Positions 1 to 24,116 of a DNA stretch of 29,840 nt are shown here, in pieces. The stretch is from an uncultured Bacteroidota bacterium (lineage in GTDB: Bacteria > Bacteroidota > Bacteroidia > 2-12-FULL-35-15), in NCBI GenBank assembly GCA_903889605.1, contig CAISYK010000953.1, positions 1 to 29,840 of the forward strand, read 5' to 3'. Positions within the stretch are counted from its first letter, which is position 1; every line of letters starts with the position of its first letter. Below the pieces are notes generated by a model. It did not search any database and was not told where the DNA came from. It worked only from the letters and a program-made list of their open reading frames with translations. The translations under genes were made by a program, and so were the position numbers.

Positions 1-186
1 CATTTTTAATATTATTAAAAGCCTGAAGTTAGAGGGGGAAAGAAATTTATACAAAAAGCTCACTTACGCTTTGGCCATAACAATGATAATTACTTTTATC
101 GTTCTTATTATTGTCTTTAAAATGGGATATATTGCTACTTATCCAACTTCGCTTTAAAGAATCTTAGTGAATTTCTATAAGCCGTT

Positions 187-1350
187 TTAATGAAGGATAA
201 CTAATTTTTTTGTAATCAATTTCTTGTTGTTTTCAGTTTCTGCAGCGATGAAGTATATGCCGTTTGGTATATTCTCAGTATTGATTTTAAAATTATTGCT
301 TTTACGGTAATTTACTTCCTGAATAACTGCTCGCCCCTGCATATCATATATTACAACCGAGTGAATATTTGAGCCTGAAACTTCAACAAAATTTTGTGCA
401 GGATTTGGGTACAAGTCATCTGAATTATTAGTTAAAGACTCTTCAATACGGTTGGCTGTAGTATTCCATCCAATTTCCTTTAAAATGCCGAGTTCCCGGT
501 AGGCTGGCCTCCTTATAGTATCTCCCGCTCCCCAGCAATAACTCATAATTGAGCCGCAAACTGAACTGTGCAGATGCAGTAAATCTACACCCAAAGTAAA
601 AGTACCGGTACCGCCGGATAATTTTATTGGCTGCCCTCCATTTGAAGGGTTTGCAAAATTCGGCCCGTCAAAATAATTTGATGTGTACTTGATGCTGTCT
701 CCTAATATTGTTGTGTTGTTTGGGGCTAAACCAACTAAATGGTTCTGGGATTTTTTAATAATAAATTTATCATAGATGGAAGGGACGCTGTCTTGCCCAT
801 GCCATGGGAATGATGCTGTTATAGGGAAAAGAGCTGATGCCGGAATGTTCCCAAATGAACCTATGTTACCCGAATTTACATAACCAGCACTATAAAAACC
901 TAATCCGTGTCCAATTTCGTGCATTATCAAAGTTATAAAGTCATCCTGACTGCCTGACGGCATTCCAGTTCCATAATACATAGGGGTAGCTAAATTGACA
1001 TAAATATCCATATCATATTCGCCGGGATTTAATTCTGTTCCAGCCAGTTGATTAGCTAATGCCGTAGGATATATAAAATTGCTGAATGGAGCATTGGTAA
1101 AGTTTTTTCGCCCGTTTGCTAAGGTAATTGCTGAAAAAGGGTATTGTGAGTTATTAACTAAAAATATATTAACCTTAACGGGTTCCGTTATTATTAGATA
1201 ATTGCCCCATCTGTCTCCGGCGCTGTTCAGAGCAGAAACAAGTCCGGCAGGAACTGAGCTTCCGTTAACATTAAAAGAAAATGTACTGGATGTTTGAGCA
1301 GTAATATGAATTACAGAAATTATAAATAAAGACAGCAGCAGTTTTTTCAT
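187..1350 (-). CDS. Secreted zinc metalloprotease-like protein with T9SS type A C-terminal sorting domain
   Basis: Sec signal MKKLLLSLFIISVIHITA-Q; zincin motif HEIGHGLGFYS (H144, nt 889-921); distal LLHLH...IMSY; C-terminal LYPNPAQN...IYDMQGR...GIYFI...KKLVILH typical of TIGR04183/Por_Secre_tail. Confidence 0.8.
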   Translation of the reverse strand: MKKLLLSLFIISVIHITAQTSSTFSFNVNGSSVPAGLVSALNSAGDRWGNYLIITEPVKVNIFLVNNSQYPFSAITLANGRKNFTNAPFSNFIYPTALANQLAGTELNPGEYDMDIYVNLATPMYYGTGMPSGSQDDFITLIMHEIGHGLGFYSAGYVNSGNIGSFGNIPASALFPITASFPWHGQDSVPSIYDKFIIKKSQNHLVGLAPNNTTILGDSIKYTSNYFDGPNFANPSNGGQPIKLSGGTGTFTLGVDLLHLHSSVCGSIMSYCWGAGDTIRRPAYRELGILKEIGWNTTANRIEESLTNNSDDLYPNPAQNFVEVSGSNIHSVVIYDMQGRAVIQEVNYRKSNNFKINTENIPNGIYFIAAETENNKKLITKKLVILH

Positions 1351-1707: not shown

Positions 1708-4700
1708 ATGAAATTTGTAAAACTACTCTCCATTGCATTATTCACTGCTTTTATTTTTCAATCGGCAAAAGCTCAAACAGTAACAGTTATTACTCCAAAT
1801 GGGGGAGAGGTGCTGTATGCCTGTCAAAGTTATAACATTACCTGGAGCCAAACTGGGAATCCGTCAAATTACTGGAACATCGATTATTCATCTAATGGCG
1901 GCGCTACATGGACTTCTGTTGCCAGTAACCTTTTGATTTCCAATGGAACTTTTGCATGGACGGTCCCTAACTTACAATCAAGTACAGTAATAATGCGAAT
2001 TGTGGATGCCGCGAATGGTAACGTAACTGATCAGAGTAATTCCAACTTTAGTATTAATATCCCAGTTACAGTAAATATTCCTAATGGCGGAGAAAGCTGG
2101 TTGGCAGGAACAACCCAGAATATCACCTGGACAGCCTTAGGAACTTCAGGGATTTTTGATATTTATTATTCTGTAAATGGAGGAAGTTCATGGAATACTA
2201 TTGTGAGCAATTATACAACAGGCGCAGGAACATATGCCTGGGTGGTGCCTAATAATCCTTCGGCATTCTGTCTTGTAAAAGTACAGGATCATACAACATC
2301 ATGCAGGGTTGATAACAGTAATACAAACTTTACAATTGTGGCTGCAACGCCTATTGTTCTCACTCCAAACGGTACTGAAACAATGTATATGAATTGTGTT
2401 TATACCATTACTTGGAACACACAGACATTTTATTCACCTGTAAAGCTGGAGTATTCAACCAACAGCGGTTCCACTTGGGTTACTATAGTTTCTTCCACAT
2501 CCAATTCAGGCGCATACAGCTGGACTATTCCAAGTACAGCGTCGGGCAGCTGTCTTGTAAAGGCCAGCAATACTGCAGATCTTGCATCTTATGATGTGAG
2601 TAATGCTGTTTTCGCAATATCTCCTGCAGTAACAGTGGTGTCGCCAAACGGAACAGAAACATTAAACGGGTGCAGCAGTTATACCATAACCTGGAACAAA
2701 ACTACCTGCGTAGGAAACTGGAATATTGCCTACTCTGCAGATAATGGCGGCAGCTGGACTAATATTGTCACCAACCTTGCTAATACAGGGGTCAACAGCC
2801 AATCATATACATGGTATGTCCCAAACAATATTACTACCTCACAAGCGCTTATCCGGGTAGAATCATATAATAATCCGGGAACATACACTGATGCGAGCAA
2901 TGCCGCTTTCAATATCAATCCAAACAATAATATTACAGTATCTGCGCCTAACGGAACTGAAACATGGATTGGATGCTCTTCTTATTCAATTAACTGGACA
3001 AAGCTGAGCGCTCCATGCAACACATATTTCGATTTATATTACTCTTTAAATAACGGGTCTACTTATAATTATATTACAACTGTAGCAGATAACGGGCAGA
3101 CTTCTCAATCATATTCATGGAGTATTCCTAATACGCTAAACAGCAGCCAATGTTTAATCAAAGTGGCATCAGACAATTGGCCTACAGTTTTTGATGTGAG
3201 CAACGCAGCATTTACAATTACTCCAAGTGCTGATGTTACAGTTTTAATTCCAAACGGAGCAGAAGTATGGCAGGGCTTAACATCTCATAACATTACCTGG
3301 AGCAATTTGTCGGGTGCATCCGGGTTATATAACGTGGAATATTCTACTAACAACGGTTCAAACTGGACTTCCCTTGCATCAAATATATCCGGGAATTCTT
3401 ATACATGGGCATCTGTTCCGAACACTCCAAGTACAACTTGCCTGGTAAGAGTTACAGATTATCTTAATCCATGTAAATATGATATGAGCAATGCGGTTTT
3501 TACAATATCAGCTGCAGCGCCTGTCCTTACATATCTGAATGGAGGCGAAATAATTAATGTTGGATGCTCATCAAGCATATACTGGACGGCGGCAACTTTT
3601 TATTCTTCGGTAAATTTATATTACTCTACCAATGGAGGAAGCAGTTATACCTTGATTGCTTCATCTTTACCTAATAACGGCTCATACAGCTGGACTGTAC
3701 CGAATGATGCCTCTGCAAATTGTTTGATAAAGGCTGCCAACTCAGCCGATGTAAATGTGTTCGATGTGAGCAATGCTCCGTTTACCATAAATGTACCGCT
3801 AACAATTACTGCAGCGAACGGAGGCGAATCTTGGATTGGCTGTAATAGCTATAATATTACCTGGACCAAATCAAATTGTCTTGGTAATTGGAATCTATAT
3901 TATTCAACTAATAATGGTTCAACCTGGACCGCTATAGTAAACTACCTTGCCAACTCAGGAACGGCCTCTCAAAGTTATTTATGGCAGGTGCCTAACGGAA
4001 TCACAACTACACAAGCAAAGATTAAAGTAGAATCGTATAATGATCCTTCAACTTATTTTGATGTGAGTGATGCAGCTTTCAATATCAACCCAAGTAACGA
4101 CATTACAGTGACAGCTCCAAACGGCGGGGAAACATTAACTGCATTAACAACATATGTAATTACATGGACCAACCTTCCTGCAGCGTCAGGACAGTATTCA
4201 CTTCAGTATTCAACCAACAATGGAGCTTCTTATTCTTCCATTGTTTCAAATATCACCGGCAACTCTTATACCTGGACAGTGCCAAATACCTCCAGCAGCC
4301 AATGTTTAGTTAAAGTTATCGACTATGTTAATACTTGTAAGTTTGATGTAAGCAATGCTCCATTTACAATAACTCCTGCCGGGCCTGTATTATTATCTCC
4401 AAACGGCGGTGAAACAGCATATATTAACTGTTACACAACCATTACCTGGGCTTCTTCAACTTTCATTTCGGCTGTTAAGCTTGAATATTCAACCAACAAT
4501 GGATCAACATGGACCCTGATCACATCAAGCACATCAAATACAGGAAGCTATAGCTGGCTTGTGCCTAATACAGTTTCGGCAAACTGTATAATAAAAGCAA
4601 GCAACACGTCCAATCTTACCTTATTCGATGTTAGTGATGCGGTATTTGCTATTGCTCCGGCAGCAACGGTAACTTCACCTAACGGCGGAGAAACTCTCAC

Positions 4701-7700
4701 AGGATGCAGCAACTATACTATCACCTGGAGCAAATCAATCTGTCTCGGCAACTGGAACTTAGAATATTCAACAAATAATGGAGTTTCATGGACTACCATT
4801 TCAAATAATATTTCCAATACTGGTGCCAACATACAATCATACAACTGGTATGTTCCTAACAGCATCACAACAGCACAGGGACTTATTCGTGTATCTTCAT
4901 ATTCAAACCCGGGAACTTATTTTGATGCGAGCAATGCTGTATTCAGTATAAATCCAAATAATAACATCACGGTTGTATCGCCAAATGGCGGCGAGGTTTG
5001 GGCAGGATGTTCCACTTATAATATTACCTGGTCAAAATTAACTTCGCCATGCAACACTTCTTTTGATTTATACTACTCTTTGAACAATGGAAGCACCTAT
5101 ACTTATTTTGCAAGCGCTTCTGATAATGGACTTGCTTCGCAGTCATATTCATGGAGTATCCCAAATACATTAAGCGGTAATCAGTGCCTTATCAAGGTGG
5201 TATCAGGCAACTGGCCTACGGTTTTTGATGTCAGCGATGCTGTATTTACTATTAATCCAAGTGTTGATATTACTGTGACAAGCCCCAATGGCGGTGAGGT
5301 TTGGCAGGGATTGTCTTCCCATGTTATCACCTGGACCAACCTGCAGGGAGCATCAGGATTGTATAATATAGAGTATTCTATAAACAACGGAACAAACTGG
5401 ATTCAATTAGCAGCAAATTATTCAGGCAATTCATATACCTGGCCGATAGTGCCTAACACGCCAAGCACAGCATGTTTGGTGAGAGTTACCGATTATCTTA
5501 CTCCATGTAAATACGATGTCAGCAATGCAGTATTTACTATTTCTCCTGCAACACCTATTCTAACATCACCAAACGGCGGTCAGACATTCAAAGTTGGCTG
5601 CGGCGCCAGTATAACCTGGACAAGCTCAACATATTATTCTACTGTAACGCTTTACTATTCATCTAACGGAGGAACAACATGGAACTCCATAGCAACAGTC
5701 GCAAATAACGGGGCTTATACCTGGACTGTTCCAAATGCCGCTTCCGGCAATTGCCTGATAAAAGCTGCCAATTCTGCGGATCTGAACGTTTTTGATATCA
5801 GCGATGCCCCTTTCACTATTAGTGTTCCTCTTACAGTCACATCCGCAAACGGCGGCGAATCTTGGGTCGGATGCAGCACTTATAACATAACGTGGACCAA
5901 AAGCACATGTATCGGTAACTGGAATATATCTTATTCAACAGATAATGGCGCAAACTGGATAGCAATAGCAAATAACGTAACTAACACAGGAGTGGCTTCG
6001 CAGTCCTACCCATGGTCTGTTCCAAACACAATTACCACAACACAGGCTCTTATTAAAGTGGAGTCCTATACCAGCCCAGGAATATATTTTGATGTCAGTG
6101 ATGCCGTGTTTACAATTAACCCAAGCAACGATTTAACTATAATAACCCCTAACGGCGGCGAAACAATCGCTTCATTAACAAATTACAATATTACATGGAG
6201 CAACCTGCCTGCAGCGTCAGGGCAATATGATTTGTATTATTCTACAAATAACGGCGGTTCCTGGACCAATATAGTTTCAAACATTACAGGTAACTCATAC
6301 ACCTGGAGTGTGCCGAATCTTTCAAGTACACAGTGTTTGATTAAAGTGTATGATTATGTCAATTCTTGTAAGTATGATGTAAGCAATGCTGTATTTACAA
6401 TTACTCCTCCAACTCCGATTCTGTTAACACCTAATGGAGGTGAAACTTTATACATTGGATGTTCTTATAATATAACTTGGAATCCTTCTACTTTTATTTC
6501 CACAGTAAACCTTGACTATTCTACCAACGGCGGAATTACCTGGCTGCCTATTTTGGCCGGTACAGCAAATGACGGAACACAATCATGGACAATTCCAAAC
6601 ACTCAATCACTGAATTGTCGTGTTAGAGCAAGCAACTCCATAGATGTTTCAATATTTGATATCAGTGATGCTTCATTCACAATTGCACCATCGGTACAGG
6701 TTATTACCCCTAACGGAGGTGAAACACTAACAGGATGCAGCAGTTATAACATAACATGGAACAAAACAAATTGTGTCGGAAGCTGGAATATACAGTACTC
6801 ACTAAATAATGGTGTTTCCTGGACAAATATTGTGACCAACCTGACTACAACCGGACCAAATTCCCAAACCTATATCTGGTATGTGCCAAATAACCTAACC
6901 ACAACTCAAGGCCTTATTAAGGTATCTTCATATTTAAACCCTAGTACTTATTGGGATCAAAGTAATGCAGTATTCAGCATCAACCCTAGTAACAACATTG
7001 TGTTGATTACACCAAACGGCGGAGAAACCTGGACGGGCTGTCAGTCATATAATATTACATGGTCTAAGTCATCATCTCCCTGCAACACAAATTACGATTT
7101 ATACTACTCTTTGAATAACGGAGTTTCTTATGTTTATTTTGCAAACGTCGCGGATAATGGTAATCCTACTCAAACTTATTCATGGACCGTTCCTAACACA
7201 ATTTCAAGCACTCAGGTATTAATCAAGGTCGTTTCCGGTAATTGGCCTACAGTTTTTGATGTAAGCAATGCGGTTTTTAATATCAACATGAATGTAGATG
7301 TAACTGTTACTTCACCTAATGGAGGGGAGTCGCTGCAGGGGCTTTCAACTCAGGTGATTACCTGGAACAACTCTGTTTATGCATCTGGGTTATACAATAT
7401 TTATTATTCTACTAATGGCGGTTCTACATGGAACACAATCGCCACAAACGTGTTTGCAAACTCTTATACCTGGAGTGTACCTAATACACCAAGCACCACA
7501 TGCTTAATAAAAGTGGAAGATTATCTTGCCGACTGCAGATTCGATATTAGTAATGCAAATTTTACAATTTCTCCGGCTACGCCTATACTTCTTACACCAA
7601 ACGGCGGAGAAGTATTGAATTCGGGTCAGACTTATGGTATCACATGGACAGCTTCTACATATTTTTCTACAGTGAATCTTTATTATTCCGCAGATAACGG

Positions 7701-10700
7701 TATTACATGGAACACAATTGTTACTAATCAGACAAATAGCGGCTCTTATACATGGACAGTTCCAAATGTGAATTCCGCTAACTGCCTGGTAAAAGCTGCA
7801 AACTTTGCTGATGTGACAATATTTGATGTCAGCGATGCGGTATTTACGATCAAACCTGCCGTGAAGATTGTTACTCCTAACGGAGGAGAAAGTGTCGGCG
7901 GATGCACGGTAACGTCTATTACCTGGGAGAGATCTCCATATTGGAACTCATATAAAATTGAATACTCCACTAACAATGGTGCATCCTGGAATACAATAGC
8001 CGCAAGTTACTCAACGTCTGCAAACCCTGCTACGTATATCTGGACATTGCCAAATACTGCATCTGCTCAAACATTAGTAAGAGTAACACCTACACTTGCG
8101 GTTTCCTATTATGACCAAAGTGATAATGTATTTACAATAACGCATCCTGTAACTATTATTCAGCCAAACTTAGGCGGAACAATGACGGTGGGAAACACAT
8201 ATAATATCACATGGAACTCGGATGGTATTTCGAATTTATATGATATTTATTATTCAACCAATGGAGGTACTTCTTATACCAATATTGTAACAGCTTATAA
8301 CACAAGTACAAATATATACGCATGGACAGTTCCTAATTTCCCATCTACTAACTGTAAGATTTGGGTAAAGGATAATACAGCTTCATGTAAACAAGATACC
8401 AGTGATGTAGTTTTTACAATTAGTTTAACAGCGGCTCCTATTACAGTGCTTACTCCAAACGGCGGTGAGAACCTGAGCGGGTGCTTCCCATATAATATTA
8501 CCTGGTCCGAACCTACAACAATCGGAACATATGACATATTATATTCAACTAACAGCGGATCTTCATGGAATAATATTGTAACCGGATATGCAACTTCATC
8601 ACATAACTATGCCTGGAATATCCCCAATACGATAAATTCCAGTACCTGCCTCATAAGGGTAAGGTCGACATCAACCCCAACAACCTATGATCAGAGTGAC
8701 GCTTTGTTGAGTATCCACTACGGAAACCTAACTGCGCTGCCATCAGATACAACAGTATGCTCCGGGCACACAGTGCAGCTTAATGCTTCCAATGGCGTTA
8801 ATTATACATGGAGTCCATCAACCGGATTAAGCTGCACTTCTTGTGCAAATCCTATAGCTACTCCTTTAGCTGGCACAACTTATACCGTTACATCAACTAA
8901 TAACGGATGTATCTTAACCGATACTGCACGTATTAATGTTTTTACTGCATCAGTAACAATCGCCGCATCTCCTGCCGGAACAATTTGTACAGGAACAAGC
9001 GTTACATTCACTGCCGCACCTGTAAATGGCGGAACAACACCTGCGTATCAATGGTATCTGAATGGGACGCCGACAGGTTCGAACAGCCCAACCTTCACAA
9101 ATTCAGGCTTAGCTAATGGTAATCAGGTTTATTGTGTCATGACATCTAATGCCCCTTGTCTGATAACTAACACCGCCACTTCCGGTACAATTACTATGAA
9201 TGTAATTTCTATACCGGCTGTTCCAGGAACCATCTCTGGAACAACGACTATTTGCTCGGGAACAAGCAACACCTACAGCATAACAGCGGTGAGCGGAGCA
9301 ACTTTTTATACATGGACATTGCCGGGCGGCTGGACAGGAACCTCTACTACAATTAGTATACCATCAACATCCAGCAGTACAAGCGGAAACATTACAGTGA
9401 CATCAGGAAATACATGCGGATCTAGTTCCGCTAAAACACTTGCTGTTACCGTGAATGTCATTCCTTCCACTCCCGGCACTATTTCTGGTCTTACAACTAT
9501 CTGCAGCGGAACAAGCAATACATACAGCGTTATTGCAGTGAGCGGAGCAACATCTTATTCATGGACATTACCAGGCGGTTGGACAGGAACTTCCGCAACA
9601 AACAGTATTACAGCAACCGCAAGCACAACAAGCGGCAGTATTACGGTGACTGCAAATAACAGCTGCGGAAACAGTTCTGCACAAACATCAGCAATTATTG
9701 TTAATACAACACCGGCAATGCCAGGAACAATTTCAGGAACGACTCCAATTTGTGCCGGTTCCACAAACACATACAGCGTCACAGCTGTGAGCGGAGCATC
9801 ATCATATACTTGGACATTACCTAACGGCTGGACAGGAACTTCTGCAGCCGCTAGTATCAGCGCTGCGGCAAGTACAACCAGCGGCAATATAACAGTTACC
9901 GCAGACAATACATGCGGAAGCAGTGCAGTAAAAACATTGGCCGTTATTGTAAATTCAATACCTGCTGTACCTGGAACAATTACGGGTTCAGCAACCATTT
10001 GCCAGGGCAGTTCAAATACATACAGCATAACAGCAGTAAGCGGTGCAGCTTTTTATACCTGGACATTGCCAGGCGGCTGGACAGGTACTTCATCAACAAA
10101 TAGCATTACTTCAACTGCTGGCAATACAAGCGGAAACATCACAGTGACTGCCGGAAACACTTGCGGATCAAGTTCAGCTCAAACACTTGCAGCTACTGTG
10201 AATTTGATTCCAAATGCACCTGGAACAATTTCAGGCCTTTCAACAATATGCAGCGGAACAAGTAATACTTACAGCATCACTGCTGTGAGCGGAGCAGCGT
10301 CTTATACTTGGACATTACCTGGCGGCTGGACTGGAACTTCTGCAACAAACAGTATAACTGCAGCCTCAAGTACAACCAGCGGCAATGTTACTGTAACTGC
10401 CAATAACAGCTGCGGAAGCAGTTCTGCACAAACGTTACCAATAACTGTTAATACCCCCCCGGCAATACCTGGAACGATTTCAGGAACTACTCCAATTTGT
10501 TCTGGTACTTCAAATACTTATAGTATTACAGCCGTAAGCGGAGCAACATCTTATACATGGACGCTCCCTAATGGCTGGACAGGCACTTCAACAACCGCAA
10601 GTATAACTGCTGCGGCAAATACAACCAGCGGAAGCCTTACTGTAACTGCAAACAATGGATGCGGCGGAAGTGCAGTAAAAACCTTAGCCGTAAATGTCTA

Positions 10701-13700
10701 TTCTATTCCTGCTGCACCCGGAATAATTACCGGTTCAGCAGCAGTTTGTGAGGGCAGTTCAAATATTTTCAGCGTGACAACCGTACCTGATGCAACTGTA
10801 TATAACTGGACGTTACCATTAGGCTGGACTGGCTCTTCAACAACAAATAGTATTACGGCAGGCGCTAATAATACAGCTGGCAACATTACAGTCACCGCAG
10901 GCAATATTTGCGGCACAAGCAGCGCTCAAACGCTAGCGGTAACAATCAACCCCTTACCGAATGTGACAGCTGGAGGCACAGCAACAATCTGTGCAGGACA
11001 ATCAACCCCTTTAACATCCGGCGGCGGAATATTATTCAGCTGGCTGCCAACAACCGGATTAAACAATCCTTCTATCTCTAATCCTTCTGCCAGCCCAACC
11101 ACAACAACTACTTATACTGTTACAGGAACTTCGGCATCTTCATGCTATGCCACCGCCACAGTAACAATAACAGTAACACCCGGCCCTACAATCACTCCTT
11201 CTGCAAGCACTTCAATTTGTGCAGGCAGCAGTACCGCATTATCTGCAAGCGGGGCGACTGCATTCAGCTGGCTTCCTGTGACTGGACTTAGCAACCCTTC
11301 GATATCAAATCCATCGGCAACCCCATCGGCTACTACTACTTATACCGTAACGGGCACGACAGGTTTGTGTTCTGGTACAGCATCAGTTACCATTACCGTT
11401 AATTCTATTCCTACTGTTACAGCGGGCACAGCAGCTACTATCTGTTCGGGATCTTCTACTCCTTTAACTTCAGGCGGTGCTTCAGGTTTCAGCTGGCTGC
11501 CTACAGCAGGATTAAGCAGCGCCTCGATTTCAAATCCGTCCGCATCTCCAGCAGCAACAACTACATATACTGTCACAGGAACGTCTTTAAATTGTTCTTC
11601 AACCGCAACGGTTACAATTACTGTAAATGCTTTAACCGTTAGTGCCGGCAGTGATGCCGCAATCTGCCAAGGCGGTAATACTGCACTTTCCGCTTCCGGA
11701 GGAACGGCGTTTTCATGGCTGCCTGCAACAGGGCTTAGTGCTGCTAATATCGCAAATCCAACAGCAAGCCCAACAACAACTACAACATATACAGTAACTG
11801 TCACTTCCGGCTTATGTTCTGCGACTGATGCGGTTTTGGTAACAGTAAATTCACCTCCGACTGCTAATGCCGGTTCGGATGTTTCAATAGCATGCGGTGG
11901 AAATACAACACTTTCAGCAAGCGGAGGCGGAACCTATTCATGGCTGCCTGCAACCGGATTAAGTAATACAAATACAGCAAATCCAGTTTGTACTCCTCCA
12001 TATTCAATTACATATACAGTGACTGTTTCTAACGGAACATGTTCGGCAACTGACCAGGTAATTGTAACAGCAGGTTCACTCACAGCAAATGCAGGCACAG
12101 ATGCCTCTATTTGTACAGGAGGCAGCACAACGCTGAGCGGTTCTTCTTCTGCTCTTCCATGGGTTGATGTAGCAAACAGCTATTCATTCGCTCAGAATAC
12201 TGCATCGTTTACGCTGATTACCGGCGGAACTATTGTTTTGAACTCTGGAAGTTCATCAATGGATGACATCGTTTCCGGTCCTTTCACCATGCCTTCATTT
12301 AAATTTAATAATATTACCTATACTTCTGTATATATATCCACCAACGGATTCATTACATTCGGTTCTGCACCTACGAGCACTAATTACAATCCAATAAGTT
12401 CTTCAGAAACTTATGCCGGTGCCGTTTCAGGATTCGGTGTAGATTTAAACAGAGCTGCTGCCGGAACACCTGAGATCAGATACCAGACTGTTGGAACTGA
12501 ATTCATTGTTCAGTATAGGGATATGGGAAGGTATGGTTCAGGAGGTACGCTGGATAGGCTCAGTTTCCAGATTCGTTTAAATACAGTTGGCAATACAGTA
12601 AAAGTTGTTTATGATGCACCAGGCCTCATAGGAGCAGCTTCTTCTGATCCTGAAGTAGGATTAAGAGGTCCGAACAATACTTTTACCACCAACGTTCATA
12701 ACAGGTCGGTAATATCCTCAACAGGATCATGGGTAAACTCAACGCAGGGCAGCGCAAATTCAAGTGTATGCTTCTTCGAAAGCTCTGCTCCAAATACGAA
12801 ACCCAGTGCCGGAACTACATTCACATGGACTCCGGTAAGCGGCGGAACAACCACCTATGCATGGTCTCCTTCAACCGGTTTGAGTTCAACCACAATTGCA
12901 AATCCTGCGGCGAATCCAACAACTACCACTACATATACGCTGACTGCAACAAACGGATCCTGCAGTGCTATTGATATGGTAACTGTTACTGTAGGGATAA
13001 GTAATGCTAATGCCGGTGCTGATGCAGCAATATGTACAGGTGGAAATACCAATCTAAACGCAACAGGAGCAACAACTTATTCGTGGCTGCCTGCGACAGG
13101 CCTTAGTGCTGCTAATATTGCAAATCCTATTGCATCACCAACAACGACAACCTCCTACACGGTAACCGGAACCAGCGGAACATGCACATCAACTGATATA
13201 GTTGTTGTTACAGTTAATTCAGTGCCTGTTGCTAATGCAGGAAACGATGTGTCGATTTGCACAGGAAACAGTACTGCGCTAAGTGCATCCAGCGGTTCGA
13301 CCTATTCATGGCTGCCTGCCACTGGATTAAGCTCAGCAGCAATTGCAAACCCTTCGGCAAATCCAAGTTCAACAACAACATATACCGTGACCGTTTCGAA
13401 CGGAAGCTGCTCATCAACGGATATGGTTATAGTTACAGTTGTAGCTCCTCCAGCAGCCAATGCAGGAACTGATGCGGCAATCTGCGCAGGAAACAATACT
13501 GTATTGAGTGCATCAGGCGGAACATCTTATACCTGGCTGCCAGCAGCAGGATTAAGCAGCGTTTCGATAGCCAGCCCGGTTGCATCTCCAACAACTACGA
13601 CAACATATACAGTATCTGTTTCGAACGGAACATGTGCTGTAACAGATATGGTAGTGGTTACAGTGAATACGGTTCCAGCAAATGCCGGATCTAATGCAGC

Positions 13701-14655
13701 AATTTGCAGCGGAAACAGCGCGGCGTTATCTGCATCAGGCGGCACCTCATACTCCTGGTCGCCCGGCACAGGCTTAAGCTCAACGAGCATCGCTAATCCT
13801 ACAGCAAATCCGACAGTTACAACAACTTATACTGTGATAGTTTCAGATGGAACTTGTTCCGCGACAGATTCTGTGATTGTTGCCGTGGCCAGTTCCCTTC
13901 CAGCCTCTCCGTCTTCGATAATCGGTGCAGCGTCTATTTGTGCTGGTTCAAATCAAACATACTCTGTTGCTTCTGATCCAAATATATCTTCATATGCATG
14001 GGTAATTCCAGGAGGGTGGAATGGTTCTTCTGTAACTAACAGCATCACAGCTTCTGCTGGTTCAAATGGCGGAATAATAGAAGTAACAGCGACAAATGGA
14101 TGCGGATCTGCTGCGCCTGCCGCATTGAACCTAACCGTAAATCCATTACCAACAGTCACAATGTCGGCACTTGGAACAGTTTGTGTTTATTCTCCAGCAT
14201 TTACACTTTCAGGCGGCAGTCCTGCAGGCGGGATTTATTCAGGTTCTGGTGTAACCAGCAATACTATTTTCACACCTGTATCGGCTGGTGCCGGCACCTT
14301 CATTATTACGTATGTTTACACTGATGGGAATGGCTGTTCAAATAATGCAAACAGTGCAATCAATGTGGATGTGTGTACCGGAATTACCGCTTTAACAGAT
14401 AATAGTAAAAGTGATGTTATTGTATTTCCAAATCCATTCAGCACTTATACAACAGTTCATATCAACGGAAACATAATCTTGAATGGCTCTGCTGTTAAGG
14501 TGTTTGATTTGACCGGCAAAAATGTTCTAAACATTACGAATATACAATCATACGATGTGAAAATAGAAAGGAAGGATTTGCAGGCAGGGATTTACTTCTA
14601 CCAGTTCGTGAACGATAATCATATTGTAAGTACCGGCAAATTGATTATTAATTAA
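1708..14655 (+). CDS. Giant (4315 aa) T9SS-secreted multi-repeat surface protein / putative adhesin with type A CTD
   Basis: Uninterrupted ORF; signal peptide MKFVKLLSIALFTAFIFQSAKA-Q; about 45 tandem beta-sandwich-type repeats of several classes; C-terminal VFPNPFS...VFDLTGK...GIYFY...GKLIIN (nt 14377-14655). Confidence 0.9.
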   Translation: MKFVKLLSIALFTAFIFQSAKAQTVTVITPNGGEVLYACQSYNITWSQTGNPSNYWNIDYSSNGGATWTSVASNLLISNGTFAWTVPNLQSSTVIMRIVDAANGNVTDQSNSNFSINIPVTVNIPNGGESWLAGTTQNITWTALGTSGIFDIYYSVNGGSSWNTIVSNYTTGAGTYAWVVPNNPSAFCLVKVQDHTTSCRVDNSNTNFTIVAATPIVLTPNGTETMYMNCVYTITWNTQTFYSPVKLEYSTNSGSTWVTIVSSTSNSGAYSWTIPSTASGSCLVKASNTADLASYDVSNAVFAISPAVTVVSPNGTETLNGCSSYTITWNKTTCVGNWNIAYSADNGGSWTNIVTNLANTGVNSQSYTWYVPNNITTSQALIRVESYNNPGTYTDASNAAFNINPNNNITVSAPNGTETWIGCSSYSINWTKLSAPCNTYFDLYYSLNNGSTYNYITTVADNGQTSQSYSWSIPNTLNSSQCLIKVASDNWPTVFDVSNAAFTITPSADVTVLIPNGAEVWQGLTSHNITWSNLSGASGLYNVEYSTNNGSNWTSLASNISGNSYTWASVPNTPSTTCLVRVTDYLNPCKYDMSNAVFTISAAAPVLTYLNGGEIINVGCSSSIYWTAATFYSSVNLYYSTNGGSSYTLIASSLPNNGSYSWTVPNDASANCLIKAANSADVNVFDVSNAPFTINVPLTITAANGGESWIGCNSYNITWTKSNCLGNWNLYYSTNNGSTWTAIVNYLANSGTASQSYLWQVPNGITTTQAKIKVESYNDPSTYFDVSDAAFNINPSNDITVTAPNGGETLTALTTYVITWTNLPAASGQYSLQYSTNNGASYSSIVSNITGNSYTWTVPNTSSSQCLVKVIDYVNTCKFDVSNAPFTITPAGPVLLSPNGGETAYINCYTTITWASSTFISAVKLEYSTNNGSTWTLITSSTSNTGSYSWLVPNTVSANCIIKASNTSNLTLFDVSDAVFAIAPAATVTSPNGGETLTGCSNYTITWSKSICLGNWNLEYSTNNGVSWTTISNNISNTGANIQSYNWYVPNSITTAQGLIRVSSYSNPGTYFDASNAVFSINPNNNITVVSPNGGEVWAGCSTYNITWSKLTSPCNTSFDLYYSLNNGSTYTYFASASDNGLASQSYSWSIPNTLSGNQCLIKVVSGNWPTVFDVSDAVFTINPSVDITVTSPNGGEVWQGLSSHVITWTNLQGASGLYNIEYSINNGTNWIQLAANYSGNSYTWPIVPNTPSTACLVRVTDYLTPCKYDVSNAVFTISPATPILTSPNGGQTFKVGCGASITWTSSTYYSTVTLYYSSNGGTTWNSIATVANNGAYTWTVPNAASGNCLIKAANSADLNVFDISDAPFTISVPLTVTSANGGESWVGCSTYNITWTKSTCIGNWNISYSTDNGANWIAIANNVTNTGVASQSYPWSVPNTITTTQALIKVESYTSPGIYFDVSDAVFTINPSNDLTIITPNGGETIASLTNYNITWSNLPAASGQYDLYYSTNNGGSWTNIVSNITGNSYTWSVPNLSSTQCLIKVYDYVNSCKYDVSNAVFTITPPTPILLTPNGGETLYIGCSYNITWNPSTFISTVNLDYSTNGGITWLPILAGTANDGTQSWTIPNTQSLNCRVRASNSIDVSIFDISDASFTIAPSVQVITPNGGETLTGCSSYNITWNKTNCVGSWNIQYSLNNGVSWTNIVTNLTTTGPNSQTYIWYVPNNLTTTQGLIKVSSYLNPSTYWDQSNAVFSINPSNNIVLITPNGGETWTGCQSYNITWSKSSSPCNTNYDLYYSLNNGVSYVYFANVADNGNPTQTYSWTVPNTISSTQVLIKVVSGNWPTVFDVSNAVFNINMNVDVTVTSPNGGESLQGLSTQVITWNNSVYASGLYNIYYSTNGGSTWNTIATNVFANSYTWSVPNTPSTTCLIKVEDYLADCRFDISNANFTISPATPILLTPNGGEVLNSGQTYGITWTASTYFSTVNLYYSADNGITWNTIVTNQTNSGSYTWTVPNVNSANCLVKAANFADVTIFDVSDAVFTIKPAVKIVTPNGGESVGGCTVTSITWERSPYWNSYKIEYSTNNGASWNTIAASYSTSANPATYIWTLPNTASAQTLVRVTPTLAVSYYDQSDNVFTITHPVTIIQPNLGGTMTVGNTYNITWNSDGISNLYDIYYSTNGGTSYTNIVTAYNTSTNIYAWTVPNFPSTNCKIWVKDNTASCKQDTSDVVFTISLTAAPITVLTPNGGENLSGCFPYNITWSEPTTIGTYDILYSTNSGSSWNNIVTGYATSSHNYAWNIPNTINSSTCLIRVRSTSTPTTYDQSDALLSIHYGNLTALPSDTTVCSGHTVQLNASNGVNYTWSPSTGLSCTSCANPIATPLAGTTYTVTSTNNGCILTDTARINVFTASVTIAASPAGTICTGTSVTFTAAPVNGGTTPAYQWYLNGTPTGSNSPTFTNSGLANGNQVYCVMTSNAPCLITNTATSGTITMNVISIPAVPGTISGTTTICSGTSNTYSITAVSGATFYTWTLPGGWTGTSTTISIPSTSSSTSGNITVTSGNTCGSSSAKTLAVTVNVIPSTPGTISGLTTICSGTSNTYSVIAVSGATSYSWTLPGGWTGTSATNSITATASTTSGSITVTANNSCGNSSAQTSAIIVNTTPAMPGTISGTTPICAGSTNTYSVTAVSGASSYTWTLPNGWTGTSAAASISAAASTTSGNITVTADNTCGSSAVKTLAVIVNSIPAVPGTITGSATICQGSSNTYSITAVSGAAFYTWTLPGGWTGTSSTNSITSTAGNTSGNITVTAGNTCGSSSAQTLAATVNLIPNAPGTISGLSTICSGTSNTYSITAVSGAASYTWTLPGGWTGTSATNSITAASSTTSGNVTVTANNSCGSSSAQTLPITVNTPPAIPGTISGTTPICSGTSNTYSITAVSGATSYTWTLPNGWTGTSTTASITAAANTTSGSLTVTANNGCGGSAVKTLAVNVYSIPAAPGIITGSAAVCEGSSNIFSVTTVPDATVYNWTLPLGWTGSSTTNSITAGANNTAGNITVTAGNICGTSSAQTLAVTINPLPNVTAGGTATICAGQSTPLTSGGGILFSWLPTTGLNNPSISNPSASPTTTTTYTVTGTSASSCYATATVTITVTPGPTITPSASTSICAGSSTALSASGATAFSWLPVTGLSNPSISNPSATPSATTTYTVTGTTGLCSGTASVTITVNSIPTVTAGTAATICSGSSTPLTSGGASGFSWLPTAGLSSASISNPSASPAATTTYTVTGTSLNCSSTATVTITVNALTVSAGSDAAICQGGNTALSASGGTAFSWLPATGLSAANIANPTASPTTTTTYTVTVTSGLCSATDAVLVTVNSPPTANAGSDVSIACGGNTTLSASGGGTYSWLPATGLSNTNTANPVCTPPYSITYTVTVSNGTCSATDQVIVTAGSLTANAGTDASICTGGSTTLSGSSSALPWVDVANSYSFAQNTASFTLITGGTIVLNSGSSSMDDIVSGPFTMPSFKFNNITYTSVYISTNGFITFGSAPTSTNYNPISSSETYAGAVSGFGVDLNRAAAGTPEIRYQTVGTEFIVQYRDMGRYGSGGTLDRLSFQIRLNTVGNTVKVVYDAPGLIGAASSDPEVGLRGPNNTFTTNVHNRSVISSTGSWVNSTQGSANSSVCFFESSAPNTKPSAGTTFTWTPVSGGTTTYAWSPSTGLSSTTIANPAANPTTTTTYTLTATNGSCSAIDMVTVTVGISNANAGADAAICTGGNTNLNATGATTYSWLPATGLSAANIANPIASPTTTTSYTVTGTSGTCTSTDIVVVTVNSVPVANAGNDVSICTGNSTALSASSGSTYSWLPATGLSSAAIANPSANPSSTTTYTVTVSNGSCSSTDMVIVTVVAPPAANAGTDAAICAGNNTVLSASGGTSYTWLPAAGLSSVSIASPVASPTTTTTYTVSVSNGTCAVTDMVVVTVNTVPANAGSNAAICSGNSAALSASGGTSYSWSPGTGLSSTSIANPTANPTVTTTYTVIVSDGTCSATDSVIVAVASSLPASPSSIIGAASICAGSNQTYSVASDPNISSYAWVIPGGWNGSSVTNSITASAGSNGGIIEVTATNGCGSAAPAALNLTVNPLPTVTMSALGTVCVYSPAFTLSGGSPAGGIYSGSGVTSNTIFTPVSAGAGTFIITYVYTDGNGCSNNANSAINVDVCTGITALTDNSKSDVIVFPNPFSTYTTVHINGNIILNGSAVKVFDLTGKNVLNITNIQSYDVKIERKDLQAGIYFYQFVNDNHIVSTGKLIIN
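1777..8721 (+). repeat. 24 tandem ~95-aa PNGGE...ITW...YSxNxG..W...W.VPN...D.S...F.I repeats (resemble the Kre9/KNH Ser-Thr-rich family, PF10342)
   Basis: Counted directly in the translation (aa 24-2338). The family name is from recognition of the consensus, not an HMM run. Confidence 0.85.
9211..10953 (+). repeat. Seven tandem 83-aa (249-nt) PKD-like repeats (PGTISG..TIC.G..NTYS...YTWTLP.GWTG...CG; resemble PF19408); an eighth copy lies at 13897-14145
   Basis: Exact 249-nt spacing: starts at 9211, 9460, 9709, 9958, 10207, 10456 and 10705. Confidence 0.85.
10954..13896 (+). repeat. Ten tandem ~75-aa Ig/PKD-like repeats (ANAG.D..IC.G....LSASGG..YSWLP.TGLS...IANP.A.P..TTTYTV...C); the sixth is split by an inserted domain
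   Basis: Counted in the translation. A further copy of this repeat type lies at 8722-8943. Confidence 0.85.
12151..12840 (+). other. ~230-aa non-repeat domain inserted inside a repeat of the giant protein; possibly nidogen/NIDO-like
   Basis: The host repeat reads TTLSGSSS-[insert]-GGTTTYAWSPSTGLS. The insert carries F.FNNITY..VYISTNGFITFG, which resembles the motif at the start of NIDO-like domains. It is homologous to nt 20847-21566. Confidence 0.7.
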
Positions 14656-20736: not shown

Positions 20737-20745
20737 TAATTTTGC
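20737..20745 (+). promoter_or_regulatory. Bacteroidota sigma70 -7 box TAATTTTGC for the GEVED protein gene
   Basis: Exact TAnnTTTG, about 42 nt before the ATG at 20787. A TTTG lies at 20718-20721, but the 15-nt spacer is shorter than canonical. Confidence 0.5.
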
Positions 20746-20786
20746 ACCCGATAAAAATAAAACACAAAACTAAAAAAGCAATAAAA

Positions 20787-23700
20787 ATGAAAAAAGCTGT
20801 ACTTACTTTATTTTCAATTTCTGCCTTGTTTAATTTTTCGAGCGCACAGGTTAGTTCATACTCTTTTGCATCAAGCACGGGAACATACGCTGCAATTACC
20901 GGCGGAGCTGTTTTGGGTGATACAACCACCGATGAGAGGAACTTTTTAGACCCGTCAGTTCCTTTGGGAGTTACAACATCAACAACAACCGGTGTTGGTT
21001 TTCCAATAGGTTTTAATTTTACCTATAATGGGATAGTTTTTGATAAGTTGGCCATAAATAACAATGGATGGATAAGTTTGGGGCAAACCAGTTTAACTCC
21101 GCACGTAAATATTGATTCGTATGATTATTATTCTTTGCCGCTTTCTCAAACATCGGCAGCTATTCCAGCACTTTTACGGAATAGAATTGGTGGTCTCGCT
21201 TTGGATTTAGATTCACAATTTGGCTCTGAGCTGAGAATACAGACAATAGGAACGACACCAAATATGGTTTGTGTAATACAGTGGAAAAATTATAAACAAT
21301 ACGGAAGTTACGGAGACATATATAATTTCCAAATTCGTTTAAAAGAAACCTCAAATGTTGTTGAAGTTGTTTACGGTACTATGGTTAATAGTGCCACATC
21401 AACTGATGCTCAAGTTGGCTTGAGCGGGACTACTGATCCTGATTTTAATATTAGGGAAACATCATCTAACTGGGCTTCAACAACCACAGGAATTGCAAAT
21501 ACTGCCACATGCTTTCTTTCTTCTACAATAAAACCGGCAAGCGGACAGACCTTTTCCTGGACTCCTTCGCCAGTTTGCACTGGAACTCCAACAGCAGGAA
21601 CTATAACAGGCCCAACAGGAGCTTGCTCAGGAGTAAGCTACAATCTAATACTAACAGGTTATTCTTCCAATGTTTCAGGTCTTACTTTTCAGTGGCAGTC
21701 GTCATCAACTTTAGGCGGAACCTATGCTCCCATTGCTGGCGCTACTTCCGTAACATATACAGCAACTCAAACAGCTGCAACTTATTATAAGTGTGTTGTT
21801 ACCTGCAGCGGATCGCCTGCCACCACAGCAGCTTTTTCTGTACCTATGAATACCGGAATATATTGTTATTGTACTGCTACTAATGGCGGTGGAGCTTGTA
21901 TTACTAATGTTACATTAGGCACCTTAAACCGGACATCAGCAGCGTGTGAAAATTCTCCAAGTTATTATACCTCGGTTCCTATTGGAACAGCTACAACAAC
22001 TGTTAATCAAGGAGTGTCATACCCTATGTCAGTTACCACCGGCAGTTCAGGCGCGGCCATTTTATCTGTTTGGATTGATTATAACCAAAATGGAACGTTT
22101 GAAGCCTCCGAATGGAATCAAATTGCGACAAACGCTCTTGCTTCAACTACAACGACTATTAATGTTATAATTCCCGGTTCTGCTGTATTAGGTCAAACTG
22201 GAATGAGAATTAGATCCCGCAGCACGGGCAATCCAAATGGGTCAGGTGATGCTTGTACAGCAATGGTTTCTGGTGAAACAGAAGATTACATGATAACTAT
22301 AGGCGCAGGCGCAGCATGTACCGGAACACCAACAGCAGGAACTGCGACTGGCCCGGCAAGTATCTGCAGCGGAGTAAGCTTTAACCTTTTATTAACAGGG
22401 TATACTTCAGGAGTAACTGGAATTACACTTCAGTGGCAATCCTCAGCAACATTAGGCGGAACCTATTCAGACATTGTAGGTGCCACTTCCCCGACCTATG
22501 CAGGAACACTAACTGCTTCAACTTATTATAGGTGTGAAGTTGTCTGCGGCAACGGAACACCTGTTTATTCAAATATTGTAACTGTAACTTTAACCCCCGC
22601 TTCAGGGTGCTATTGCACTCCTGTCCACAGCGTAACGTGCAGTGCAAACTACATTGATAGTGTAAGAATAGGGTCTACAACACTTGCTAATTTACATACA
22701 GGCTGCACAGGAACAGATGGTATGGCATATACTATTTATCCAGCAACAGGTAACACAACCGCATCTTTAACTGGCGGCACTGCTTATACTTTTAAAATTA
22801 CAACAACATCTAGCAACATTGTTTCTGTATGGATCGACTATAATCAAAATGGTCTGTATGAAGCATCTGAATGGACACAGGTATGCATCACATCAACTGC
22901 AAATATTGTAAATACCGCAACTATTACAATACCTGCAAATGCAACATCTGGCCTCACAGGAATGAGGATAAGAAGCCGTTCAGCAGGAAGCCCTAACGGT
23001 TCTTCTGATGCGTGTACCAGCTTTGCCAGCGGAGAAACAGAGGACTATAAAGTAACTATTGTTGCAGCACCAGCATGTACAGGAACTCCAACGGCAGGAA
23101 CAGCTTCAGCAAGTGATGATACTGTTTGCAGCGGTGTAAATTTTAATCTTGTGTTAACAGGCTATACTTCTGGAGTTTCAGGTCTTACTTTTCAATGGCA
23201 GTCATCTACTGATGGAACCACCTATACAAGCATTATTGGTGCCATGACATCTACATACCAAACATTACAAACAGCTGCAAAATATTATAAGTGTTTGGTA
23301 TCCTGCAGCGGCGGAACACCAGCTCCTTCTAATGCTGTACATGTAATAATGAATGACTTAATGAACTGTTATTGTACTTCAACTGCAACCTATGTTGCTG
23401 ACGAAGATATTTTTAATGTTACGGTCGGTACTTTAAATAATTCATCCACTTGTTTAACTACAGGAGGTGTAGGTTCTTCATTGAATAAATATTCAAATTA
23501 TAAGGCTGTTGCAGCGCCGGATCTTGAAAGAAATACTTCTGTTCCTTTTTCTGTTCAAATTGGAACTTGCGGTACCACTCCATACAGCAATGCATTCAAA
23601 ATATTTATTGATTATAACCAAAATGGTTCCTTTGCAGAAGCAGGAGAAGTTGTTTATATTTCTGACACTGCAAAAGGCGGATATACTCAAACGGGAACAT

Positions 23701-24116
23701 TTACTGTACCTGCAGCTGCAGTATTAGGACATACATTGATGAGAGTTGTGAATAAAGAAACTTCTGATGCTTCATCAATTGACTCCTGCGGAACGTTTGG
23801 TTATGGAGAAACAGAAGATTACATTGTAAATATAACAGGCCCTTCTGGAATTGAAGAAAATACTATCAGCGGGATTGCAATATATCCAAACCCTACAACC
23901 GGTATGTTTAATATAACAACCAGCAGCGCAGACTTTAAAGAACTTCAGATCAGCGTTTTTGATATGCAGGGCAAAGAGGTATTTAGTGCGGTAGATAAAA
24001 ACAATTCTACTAATTATAATAAACAAATTAATCTGGAAGGTTTGGCAAAAGGCATTTATTATATCAAGTTAAATTCCGGAACGGGTATAAAAATCCAAAA
24101 ATTAATTATGCAGTAA
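20787..24116 (+). CDS. T9SS protein: N-terminal NIDO-like domain, three (Ig-like + GEVED) dyads and a type A CTD
   Basis: The ATG at 20787 gives the signal MKKAVLTLFSISALFNFSSA-Q. There are three WIDYNQNG.FE..E / GETEDY motifs (GEVED, PF20009-like) and an IYPNPTT...FDMQGKE...GIYYI...KLIMQ CTD. Confidence 0.88.
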   Translation: MKKAVLTLFSISALFNFSSAQVSSYSFASSTGTYAAITGGAVLGDTTTDERNFLDPSVPLGVTTSTTTGVGFPIGFNFTYNGIVFDKLAINNNGWISLGQTSLTPHVNIDSYDYYSLPLSQTSAAIPALLRNRIGGLALDLDSQFGSELRIQTIGTTPNMVCVIQWKNYKQYGSYGDIYNFQIRLKETSNVVEVVYGTMVNSATSTDAQVGLSGTTDPDFNIRETSSNWASTTTGIANTATCFLSSTIKPASGQTFSWTPSPVCTGTPTAGTITGPTGACSGVSYNLILTGYSSNVSGLTFQWQSSSTLGGTYAPIAGATSVTYTATQTAATYYKCVVTCSGSPATTAAFSVPMNTGIYCYCTATNGGGACITNVTLGTLNRTSAACENSPSYYTSVPIGTATTTVNQGVSYPMSVTTGSSGAAILSVWIDYNQNGTFEASEWNQIATNALASTTTTINVIIPGSAVLGQTGMRIRSRSTGNPNGSGDACTAMVSGETEDYMITIGAGAACTGTPTAGTATGPASICSGVSFNLLLTGYTSGVTGITLQWQSSATLGGTYSDIVGATSPTYAGTLTASTYYRCEVVCGNGTPVYSNIVTVTLTPASGCYCTPVHSVTCSANYIDSVRIGSTTLANLHTGCTGTDGMAYTIYPATGNTTASLTGGTAYTFKITTTSSNIVSVWIDYNQNGLYEASEWTQVCITSTANIVNTATITIPANATSGLTGMRIRSRSAGSPNGSSDACTSFASGETEDYKVTIVAAPACTGTPTAGTASASDDTVCSGVNFNLVLTGYTSGVSGLTFQWQSSTDGTTYTSIIGAMTSTYQTLQTAAKYYKCLVSCSGGTPAPSNAVHVIMNDLMNCYCTSTATYVADEDIFNVTVGTLNNSSTCLTTGGVGSSLNKYSNYKAVAAPDLERNTSVPFSVQIGTCGTTPYSNAFKIFIDYNQNGSFAEAGEVVYISDTAKGGYTQTGTFTVPAAAVLGHTLMRVVNKETSDASSIDSCGTFGYGETEDYIVNITGPSGIEENTISGIAIYPNPTTGMFNITTSSADFKELQISVFDMQGKEVFSAVDKNNSTNYNKQINLEGLAKGIYYIKLNSGTGIKIQKLIMQ
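21567..23834 (+). repeat. Three tandem ~250-aa dyads (CTGTPTAGT...QWQSS...YY.C.V.C...CYC + GEVED)
   Basis: CTGTPTAGT begins at 21576, 22317 and 23076 (periods of 741 and 759 nt). Confidence 0.85.

Follow-up and report, generated by a model that had tools for sequence, protein, structure and literature searches.

A predicted NIDO-like domain nested in an Ig-like repeat of a giant type IX secretion system surface protein from an uncultured Bacteroidota bacterium

The contig CAISYK010000953.1 of an uncultured Bacteroidota bacterium (assembly GCA_903889605.1), whose positions 1 to 29,840 are called the window here, encodes a giant surface protein that ends in a type IX secretion system (T9SS) sorting domain. 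One of its immunoglobulin (Ig)-like repeats is interrupted by a long insert, and this raises the questions of what the insert is, whether the interrupted repeat still folds, and what a domain at such a place would do for the cell. Taken as a whole, the reading that we consider probable is that a NIDO-like domain was placed inside the repeat by domain shuffling and is displayed laterally as a binding or adhesion module. The features of the giant protein on which this reading is built are as follows.

1708..14655, + strand: gene of the giant T9SS surface protein, from the open reading frame list and translation (4315 aa)
Layout of the giant protein: N-terminal PNGGE-type repeats, followed by PKD_6 repeats, ten Ig_7-type repeats and a Por_Secre_tail C-terminal domain (the last three from Pfam)
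12073..12150, + strand: N-terminal part of the split sixth Ig_7-type repeat (aa 3456-3481, strands A/A'), holding the conserved Cys of the IC.GG motif
12151..12840, + strand: inserted, predicted NIDO-like beta-sandwich domain (aa 3482-3711; core found by the family profile, 12166-12837)
12841..12996, + strand: C-terminal part of the interrupted sixth Ig_7-type repeat, comprising strands B to G (aa 3712-3763) and holding the second conserved Cys
14422..14649, + strand: T9SS C-terminal sorting domain (Pfam Por_Secre_tail, E 1.5e-9)

The C-terminal third of the giant protein is made of ten Ig_7-type repeats of about 75 aa, five intact, the sixth split, and four more intact. In the sixth, about 230 aa separate ...TTLSGSSS from GGTTTYAWSP..., and the break falls in the Gly/Ser-rich turn of the A'-B hairpin, which reads SASGG in the neighbouring repeats. 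A hidden Markov model (HMM) of the host repeat was built from the nine intact repeats. It placed aa 3458-3481 on model positions 3-25 and aa 3711-3762 on positions 23-74 (E 6.5e-23), and the flanks therefore sum to one repeat. Pfam Ig_7 (PF19081) was also matched in this region of the protein, and the conserved Cys pair, with one Cys in each half, is kept here and in all nested relatives.

A composite AlphaFold2 (AF2) run on aa 3381-3840, a stretch that takes in the split repeat, its insert and the adjoining repeats 5 and 7 (43-row alignment), gave a mean predicted local distance difference test score (pLDDT) of 90.8 and a predicted template modelling score (pTM) of 0.68. The split repeat showed the strand pattern of its intact neighbours, and its N-terminal half was modelled with a pLDDT of 80-89. 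Solved single Ig domains were superimposed on the split repeat across the insert, overall with 74-80 residues at 2.1-2.5 Å over model residues 76-385. They included ICAM-1 D1 (3tcx_A; Z 9.5, 76 residues, 2.2 Å, model range 79..385), Perlecan IG3 (1gl4_B; Z 8.9, 79 residues, 2.1 Å, model range 77..383) and a Big_2 domain (7r3t_B; Z 8.7, 74 residues, 2.4 Å, model range 76..384). The split repeat has about 81 residues outside the insert, and 74-75 residues were aligned on the intact repeats 5 and 7; two-domain Ig chains aligned across the split repeat and repeat 7. An insertion in mid-repeat, with flanks that form one domain, had been proposed in a preliminary description of this DNA made from the sequence alone, and the contiguous HMM pieces, the composite model and the solved Ig domains that span the insert all agree with it. 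Taken together, they provide good model-level evidence that the two halves form one Ig domain from which the insert branches sideways.

At the C-terminal junction, the last ~32 aa of the insert (12745-12840; ..C......P.AGTTFTWTP) weakly resemble the opening 30 positions of the HMM of the host repeat (E 4e-4, compared with 12073-12180). The G.T(F/Y).W.P motif is thus doubled at this junction in every nested unit, which may reflect convergence of two beta-hairpins or a recombination footprint.

The insert itself is, according to its model, a beta-sandwich domain of about 225 aa that is complete and folds independently, from a large bacterial branch of the NIDO fold for which no family model exists. 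Modelled alone by AF2 from a 66-row alignment, it was all-beta with a pLDDT of 93.9 and a pTM of 0.93. Neither this domain nor its second copy in the window, described below, was matched by Pfam or NCBIfam. When 1.84 billion representative proteins were searched exhaustively with phmmer, 1675 relatives of the insert were found at E<=1e-3, of which 138 reached E<=1e-30.

The assignment to the NIDO fold comes mainly from structure comparison, with prediction set against prediction on both sides. In a Foldseek search of the AlphaFold Swiss-Prot models, the top ten matches were PLXDC1/2, alpha-tectorin, Drosophila nidogen and C. elegans DEX-1, which we take to be animal NIDO-bearing proteins. The first nine had a Foldseek probability of 1.0 and the tenth (DEX-1) of 0.99, and the unrelated matches thereafter had 0.14 or less. 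Moreover, Pfam NIDO was weakly matched by 27 of the 66 family members (E<=1; best E 3.7e-6) and any other family by at most two. A language-model search of the ESM Atlas also returned a NIDO-containing cluster, and searches of the AlphaFold clusters and the ESM Atlas found the same fold with template modelling (TM) scores by query of up to 0.88. Of the two signature motifs of NIDO, NG..SF and PFW.D, the first reads NGFITFG in the insert, where N65, G66 and G71 are (nearly) invariant, and the second reads SGFGVDL in the insert, FPFWDD in the gliding adhesin RemZ and APLWDDL in the relative P0150. The models place the domain in the NIDO beta-sandwich fold, and the preliminary guess of a NIDO-like fold, made from motifs, is upheld by the Foldseek matches and the 27 weak Pfam matches at the level of fold or superfamily. 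Neither of the two window copies matched Pfam NIDO (PF06119) even at E<=1, and neither is a member in the sense of Pfam.

No PDB entry matched the insert model by Foldseek at E<=1e-3, and the best match of a wide VIA structure search (Z 6.0) was inside the noise range stated for that tool. A kinship with supersandwich or glycosidase-accessory domains reached a Z of only 4-4.7 and was not taken as evidence. Two ESM Atlas clusters are labelled almost entirely viral (Uroviricota). One has 130 members, some with SprB repeats, and matched structurally with a TM by query of 0.72; the other, with 55 members, matched by language-model features only (score 0.94). These clusters suggested a phage link of the domain, but tblastn against 50,697 GenBank phage records gave no match.

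Metazoan NIDO (PF06119), found in the nidogen G1 region, alpha-tectorin, PLXDC1/2, DEX-1, MUC4 and SNED1, has the same predicted fold and shares the NG.(I/L).F(G) motif with the bacterial domain. Its PFW.D motif is shared by the more divergent bacterial relatives and RemZ. Both domains are extracellular and occur in large modular proteins. The bacterial domain is longer (about 225 aa versus a 186-position model, with an additional conserved C-terminal G.T(F/Y).W.P strand) and, unlike its metazoan counterpart, it is linked to the T9SS and is usually an N-terminal head. Within the limited literature searched, we found no published description of bacterial NIDO-like heads of T9SS proteins.

The second copy in the window belongs to a protein with GEVED domains.

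20742..24116, + strand: gene of a GEVED-domain T9SS protein (1124-aa open reading frame; Pfam GEVED three times, E 5e-59, and Por_Secre_tail, E 2.8e-18)
20838..21569, + strand: predicted N-terminal NIDO-like head domain of the GEVED protein (family HMM, E 1.4e-48; BLASTP; tree)

The open reading frame of this gene opens at a TTG (20742), and an ATG at 20787 is also in frame. The ATG is more likely the real start, with a signal peptide that then ends just ahead of the head domain. Both window proteins have a Por_Secre_tail at the C-terminus and a hydrophobic N-terminus in translation, as T9SS type-A cargo does.

Homology between the insert and this head was the central claim of the preliminary description. 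BLASTP aligned the insert with residues 1-330 of the GEVED protein at 30% identity over 257 columns (E 5e-25), collinearly from SYSFA through F(T/S)WTP. A profile of 16 insert orthologues aligned to a profile of 16 GEVED-type heads with an hhalign probability of 99.9% (E 1.2e-34, 206 columns), so that the profile alignment by which the claim was to be checked is significant. The family HMM located the two copies at 12166-12837 and 20838-21569, in agreement with the coordinates given earlier, and every motif quoted for the pair is present.

The two copies are only distantly related within the family. They are 30-33% identical to each other and belong to different subfamilies, and their nearest relatives, in other genomes, are 76% (insert) and 67% (GEVED head) identical to them. 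In an IQ-TREE tree of 103 domain copies, the window insert fell in a clade of 16 nested-only copies (Shimodaira-Hasegawa-like approximate likelihood ratio support 92) within a group of N-terminal heads, and the GEVED head fell in a separate clade of 30 N-terminal-only copies (support 99). Since the local copies belong to separate subfamilies, they are not the outcome of a local duplication, and the earlier view that they are too diverged for a recent one holds, each being closer to its outside relatives than to the other. Moreover, the nearly invariant Arg of the family is R172 in the insert and Ser in the GEVED copy. Because of this difference, the low identity and the separate subfamilies, it is doubtful that both copies present the same ligand-binding or self-association function at different heights. 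Of the preliminary interpretation as a whole, the homology, the nesting, the NIDO-like fold and the absence of a recent duplication stand, and the shared ligand is the part that remains doubtful.

In the family at large, the domain is mostly found at the N-terminus. In ~136 of the best 150 phmmer relatives (about 90%) it starts at residue ~15-60, directly behind the signal peptide, and a minority have internal copies or tandem sets of 2-7; among the retrieved proteins there were 266 N-terminal and 64 internal copies. The head co-occurs with GEVED, Ig_7, fn3, P_proprotein, MAM, CUB, CARDB and other domains, and most of the proteins end in Por_Secre_tail. The relatives found by structure search were likewise heads of T9SS proteins with Ig_7/fn3, CARDB, reprolysin, S8 or GEVED domains, and also PEP-CTERM and dockerin proteins. 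The suggestion that the module has two uses, as N-terminal head and as internal branch, is in line with this distribution, in which several lineages carry it nested or between repeats. We also considered that N-terminal heads could be truncated nested units, and rejected it, as a half repeat follows the head in 2 of 261 proteins only, both of them contig-end fragments.

An even sample of the phylum gave a domain match (E<=1e-5) in 40 of 151 genomes and 35 of 89 genera. The source metagenome-assembled genome (MAG) has four domain matches. Two of them are more distant copies on other contigs, C818:524-994 (E 4e-9) and C406:2802-3125 (E 2e-5), in open frames of ~960-1000 aa. Tandem arrays of 4-7 copies occur in some proteins, part of them in a divergent form that has an (F/Y)NW(I/V)DIS motif, and variation in copy number was noted in P0276, P0094, P0005, P0074, P0107 and P0114.

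A close known counterpart of the head is found in Flavobacterium johnsoniae. Its mobile gliding adhesins RemZ (Fjoh_0803) and RemA are T9SS type-A cargo and carry a homologous domain, likewise directly after the signal peptide. RemA reportedly owes its sugar binding to a separate lectin domain. Pfam scans detected no Gal_Lectin (SUEL) domain in either window protein, and in domain content neither qualifies as a RemA-type gliding adhesin; the head domain alone is common to them. The only PDB sequence matching the family profile is 8gl6 chain D (aa 19-243, E 2.1e-15). This chain is the gliding-adhesin homologue RemZ, of which the C-terminal domain alone was resolved (PMC10994853). The domain of RemZ is a head, whereas that of the giant protein is nested.

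The host protein has the same plan as the GhpA grappling hook of Aureispira and SprB, consisting of a signal peptide, dozens of Ig-like repeats, and a T9SS sorting domain at the C-terminus. The host repeats (window 10950-14400) are 22-32% identical to the GhpA cryo-electron microscopy fragments 9fly, 9flv, 9flu and 9fls, and by sequence the giant protein may be a fibre related to GhpA. The N-terminal 2400 aa of the giant protein are of a repeat type different from GhpA. In the first ~2450 aa (window 1708-9050), the PNGGE-type repeats gave Pfam matches to Reelin_subrepeat-B (E 2e-34) and Kre9_KNH (E 5e-31), both summed over the repeats, with no single stretch passing alone. GhpA is a heptameric T9SS grappling hook, and giant Ig-repeat proteins of this kind can form lateral bundles (bioRxiv 10.1101/2024.01.29.577165). 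A nested NIDO-like domain is not described for GhpA in the text consulted (bioRxiv 10.1101/2024.01.29.577165).

For the nesting itself, the integrins offer a precedent. The integrin beta-I domain is inserted in the hybrid domain and is thus a nested domain in a beta-sandwich host. As in integrins, the giant protein is predicted to hold a whole globular domain in an inter-strand loop of an Ig-like sandwich that still folds, giving a side-mounted binding head. The folds and the lineage are unrelated, and here, unlike in integrins, the same guest has come to occupy one particular hairpin of small Ig_7/Big_2-like repeats in no fewer than three lineages.

These comparisons suggest how the domain would be presented. 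T9SS type-A cargo is held with its C-terminus at the cell surface and its N-terminus distal, as GhpA illustrates (bioRxiv 10.1101/2024.01.29.577165). In most family members from the Bacteroidota and the Fibrobacterota-Chlorobiota-Bacteroidota group, the domain would be the membrane-distal head of a T9SS cargo that is held at the surface by its C-terminus. In the giant protein and all its orthologues it lies in the A'-B hairpin of one stalk repeat, about 600 aa, or approximately seven small domains, before the C-terminus. Because the host repeat appears to fold still as one Ig domain, at the level of sequence and model, the insert would project sideways off the rod as a branch. The GEVED protein carries a distant paralogue as its N-terminal head, and domain shuffling probably brought both copies. 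We presume that the nested domain is a glycan- or protein-binding or adhesion module, displayed sideways, close to the cell-proximal end of the fibre and not at its tip. A binding or targeting role would fit the varied partner domains of the family, proteases included.

Several observations weigh against this interpretation. The TM scores by query to metazoan NIDO models are moderate (0.44-0.57). The NIDO matches of the relatives span the first ~60 of 186 model positions and score 19-22 bits against a gathering threshold of 25, and the window insert stays below every Pfam threshold. The single-domain fold of the split repeat derives from a predicted model and from alignment ranges, and the five composite AF2 models spread from pLDDT 64 to 91. 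We infer the binding role from position and partner domains, and metazoan NIDO is itself poorly understood. Finally, a position near the base of the fibre is odd for the tip of an adhesin.

A second explanation, to which we give perhaps one chance in five, sees in the nested domain a module for assembly or self-association and not a receptor for external ligands. It would cross-link neighbouring fibres side by side, join fibre bases into oligomers as in the GhpA heptamer, or dock another head such as that of the local GEVED protein. The insert is close to the anchored end, with ~600 aa between it and the C-terminus, and some relatives have 2-7 copies per chain. Animal NIDO proteins act in matrix assembly, which would also be in keeping with such a role. 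Lateral bundling in giant T9SS Ig-repeat proteins such as GhpA (bioRxiv 10.1101/2024.01.29.577165), and the 22-32% identity of the host repeats to GhpA fragments point in the same direction. However, in ~90% of the family the domain is present once, as the distal head of widely differing proteins, proteases among them, and for this targeting is a better fit. Docking between the two local proteins is not favoured either, as their genes are 6 kb apart with unrelated genes between them and their domains are 30% identical; beyond the common domain, there is nothing that ties the two genes functionally.

The conservation of the nesting bears on a third explanation, that the insert is a neutral passenger, left over when a head-bearing gene and an Ig_7-repeat gene fused or underwent illegitimate recombination, tolerated in a permissive hairpin and serving no purpose of its own at that place. 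The 13 orthologous giants come from independent assemblies and are 4066-5902 aa long. All of them align along the whole of aa 3381-3840, with 58-77% identity, and in all 13 the domain is in the same hairpin; P0276, an orthologue of 5414 aa, has two nested units in different repeats. The insert itself is 48-76% identical among the orthologues, with 34 invariant and 34 nearly invariant columns that include the family-wide NG..FG, Q140, R172 and W194. Its frame has neither stops nor decay. The insert was at first missing from nine of these giants, which proved to be an artefact of the default HMMER filter, as BLASTP and hmmsearch with --max find it in all of them. The default bias filter dropped true 280-bit matches in 9 of the 13 giant Ser/Thr/Gly-rich proteins, and surveys of such proteins need --max or --nobias.

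Beyond the orthologues, the same hairpin position, after C.G...L.(A/S)... and before Y.W.P, is occupied in P0009 (1330 aa), P0094/P0106 and P0339/P0150/P0366, and a shorter divergent domain occupies it in P0360/P0364/P0365. Internal copies between intact repeats occur in P0024 and as the second copy of P0094, whose nested and between-repeats copies are sister copies. In the tree, the remaining nested copies fell in two further places, and an approximately unbiased (AU) test rejected a single clade for 25 nested copies (delta log-likelihood 573, p 1e-5), a group that was chosen after the tree had been seen. The tree and the AU test therefore indicate that nesting at the A'-B hairpin arose, or was swapped with other positions, at least three times, and so occurs in the same hairpin in at least three lineages.

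Repeated use of one hairpin could just mark a structurally permissive site, and the last ~32 aa of the insert, with their weak likeness to how the host repeat begins (E 4e-4), hint that similar motifs recombined; both points would speak for a neutral passenger. A search for flanking direct repeats as a footprint of insertion gave chance-level short repeats only, and the GC content of the insert is similar to that of its flanks. A passenger would not be expected to be kept in 13 of 13 orthologues at 48-76% identity with 34 invariant columns and without stops or decay, or to be modelled as confidently as the N-terminal heads, and we regard this explanation as improbable. That the feature is unreal, whether as a chance similarity in low-complexity Ser/Thr/Gly-rich sequence or as an assembly chimera, might be suspected from a MAG of 1288 contigs and 79% completeness and from a protein composition biased enough to trip the HMMER filter, yet it is already refuted by the orthologues, with the same layout in independent assemblies from JGI, ENA, NCBI and Logan, alignments at E 5e-25 and 1e-34, a continuous frame and a GC content like that of the flanks.

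The genes around the two copies complete the description of the window. Between the giant and GEVED genes there are an opposite-strand AddA-like UvrD/PD-(D/E)XK helicase-nuclease (14853-18167, - strand), which separates the giant gene from the other T9SS genes, the gene of a small CxxCH lipoprotein, and, at 18952-20634 (+ strand), that of an S8 subtilase carrying a Por_Secre_tail. A further T9SS cargo gene of 387 aa, with Por_Secre_tail as its sole Pfam match, lies at 187-1350 (- strand). With these two additional cargo genes, the neighbourhood is rich in T9SS substrates.

Domain nesting, NIDO-like folds and T9SS Ig-repeat fibres are each known; what is new is the architecture that combines them, and a large unannotated domain family comes as a by-product. 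The nesting described here is clean, conserved and recurrent in one hairpin of a small Ig-like repeat. As such inserts break repeat detection, its recognition aids the annotation of giant proteins, and the layout is useful for engineering side branches on Ig-repeat rods. The head of hundreds of T9SS surface proteins, RemZ and RemA included, gains a NIDO-like fold assignment and a defined family, which is currently captured by no Pfam or NCBIfam model. We tentatively put forward a wider possibility, in which the ~225-aa domain represents a bacterial branch of the NIDO superfamily that is very large and unannotated, serves T9SS surface proteins, RemA/RemZ among them, as their standard distal binding head, and was repeatedly grafted into the same A'-B hairpin to give branched fibres. 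If this is true, a matrix domain regarded as animal-specific would have deep reserves in bacteria, or could even have originated there, and the bacterial proteins would offer a tractable route to the biochemical function of NIDO. In any case, the family ties a poorly understood domain of the animal extracellular matrix to bacterial relatives that are plentiful and can readily be expressed and assayed.

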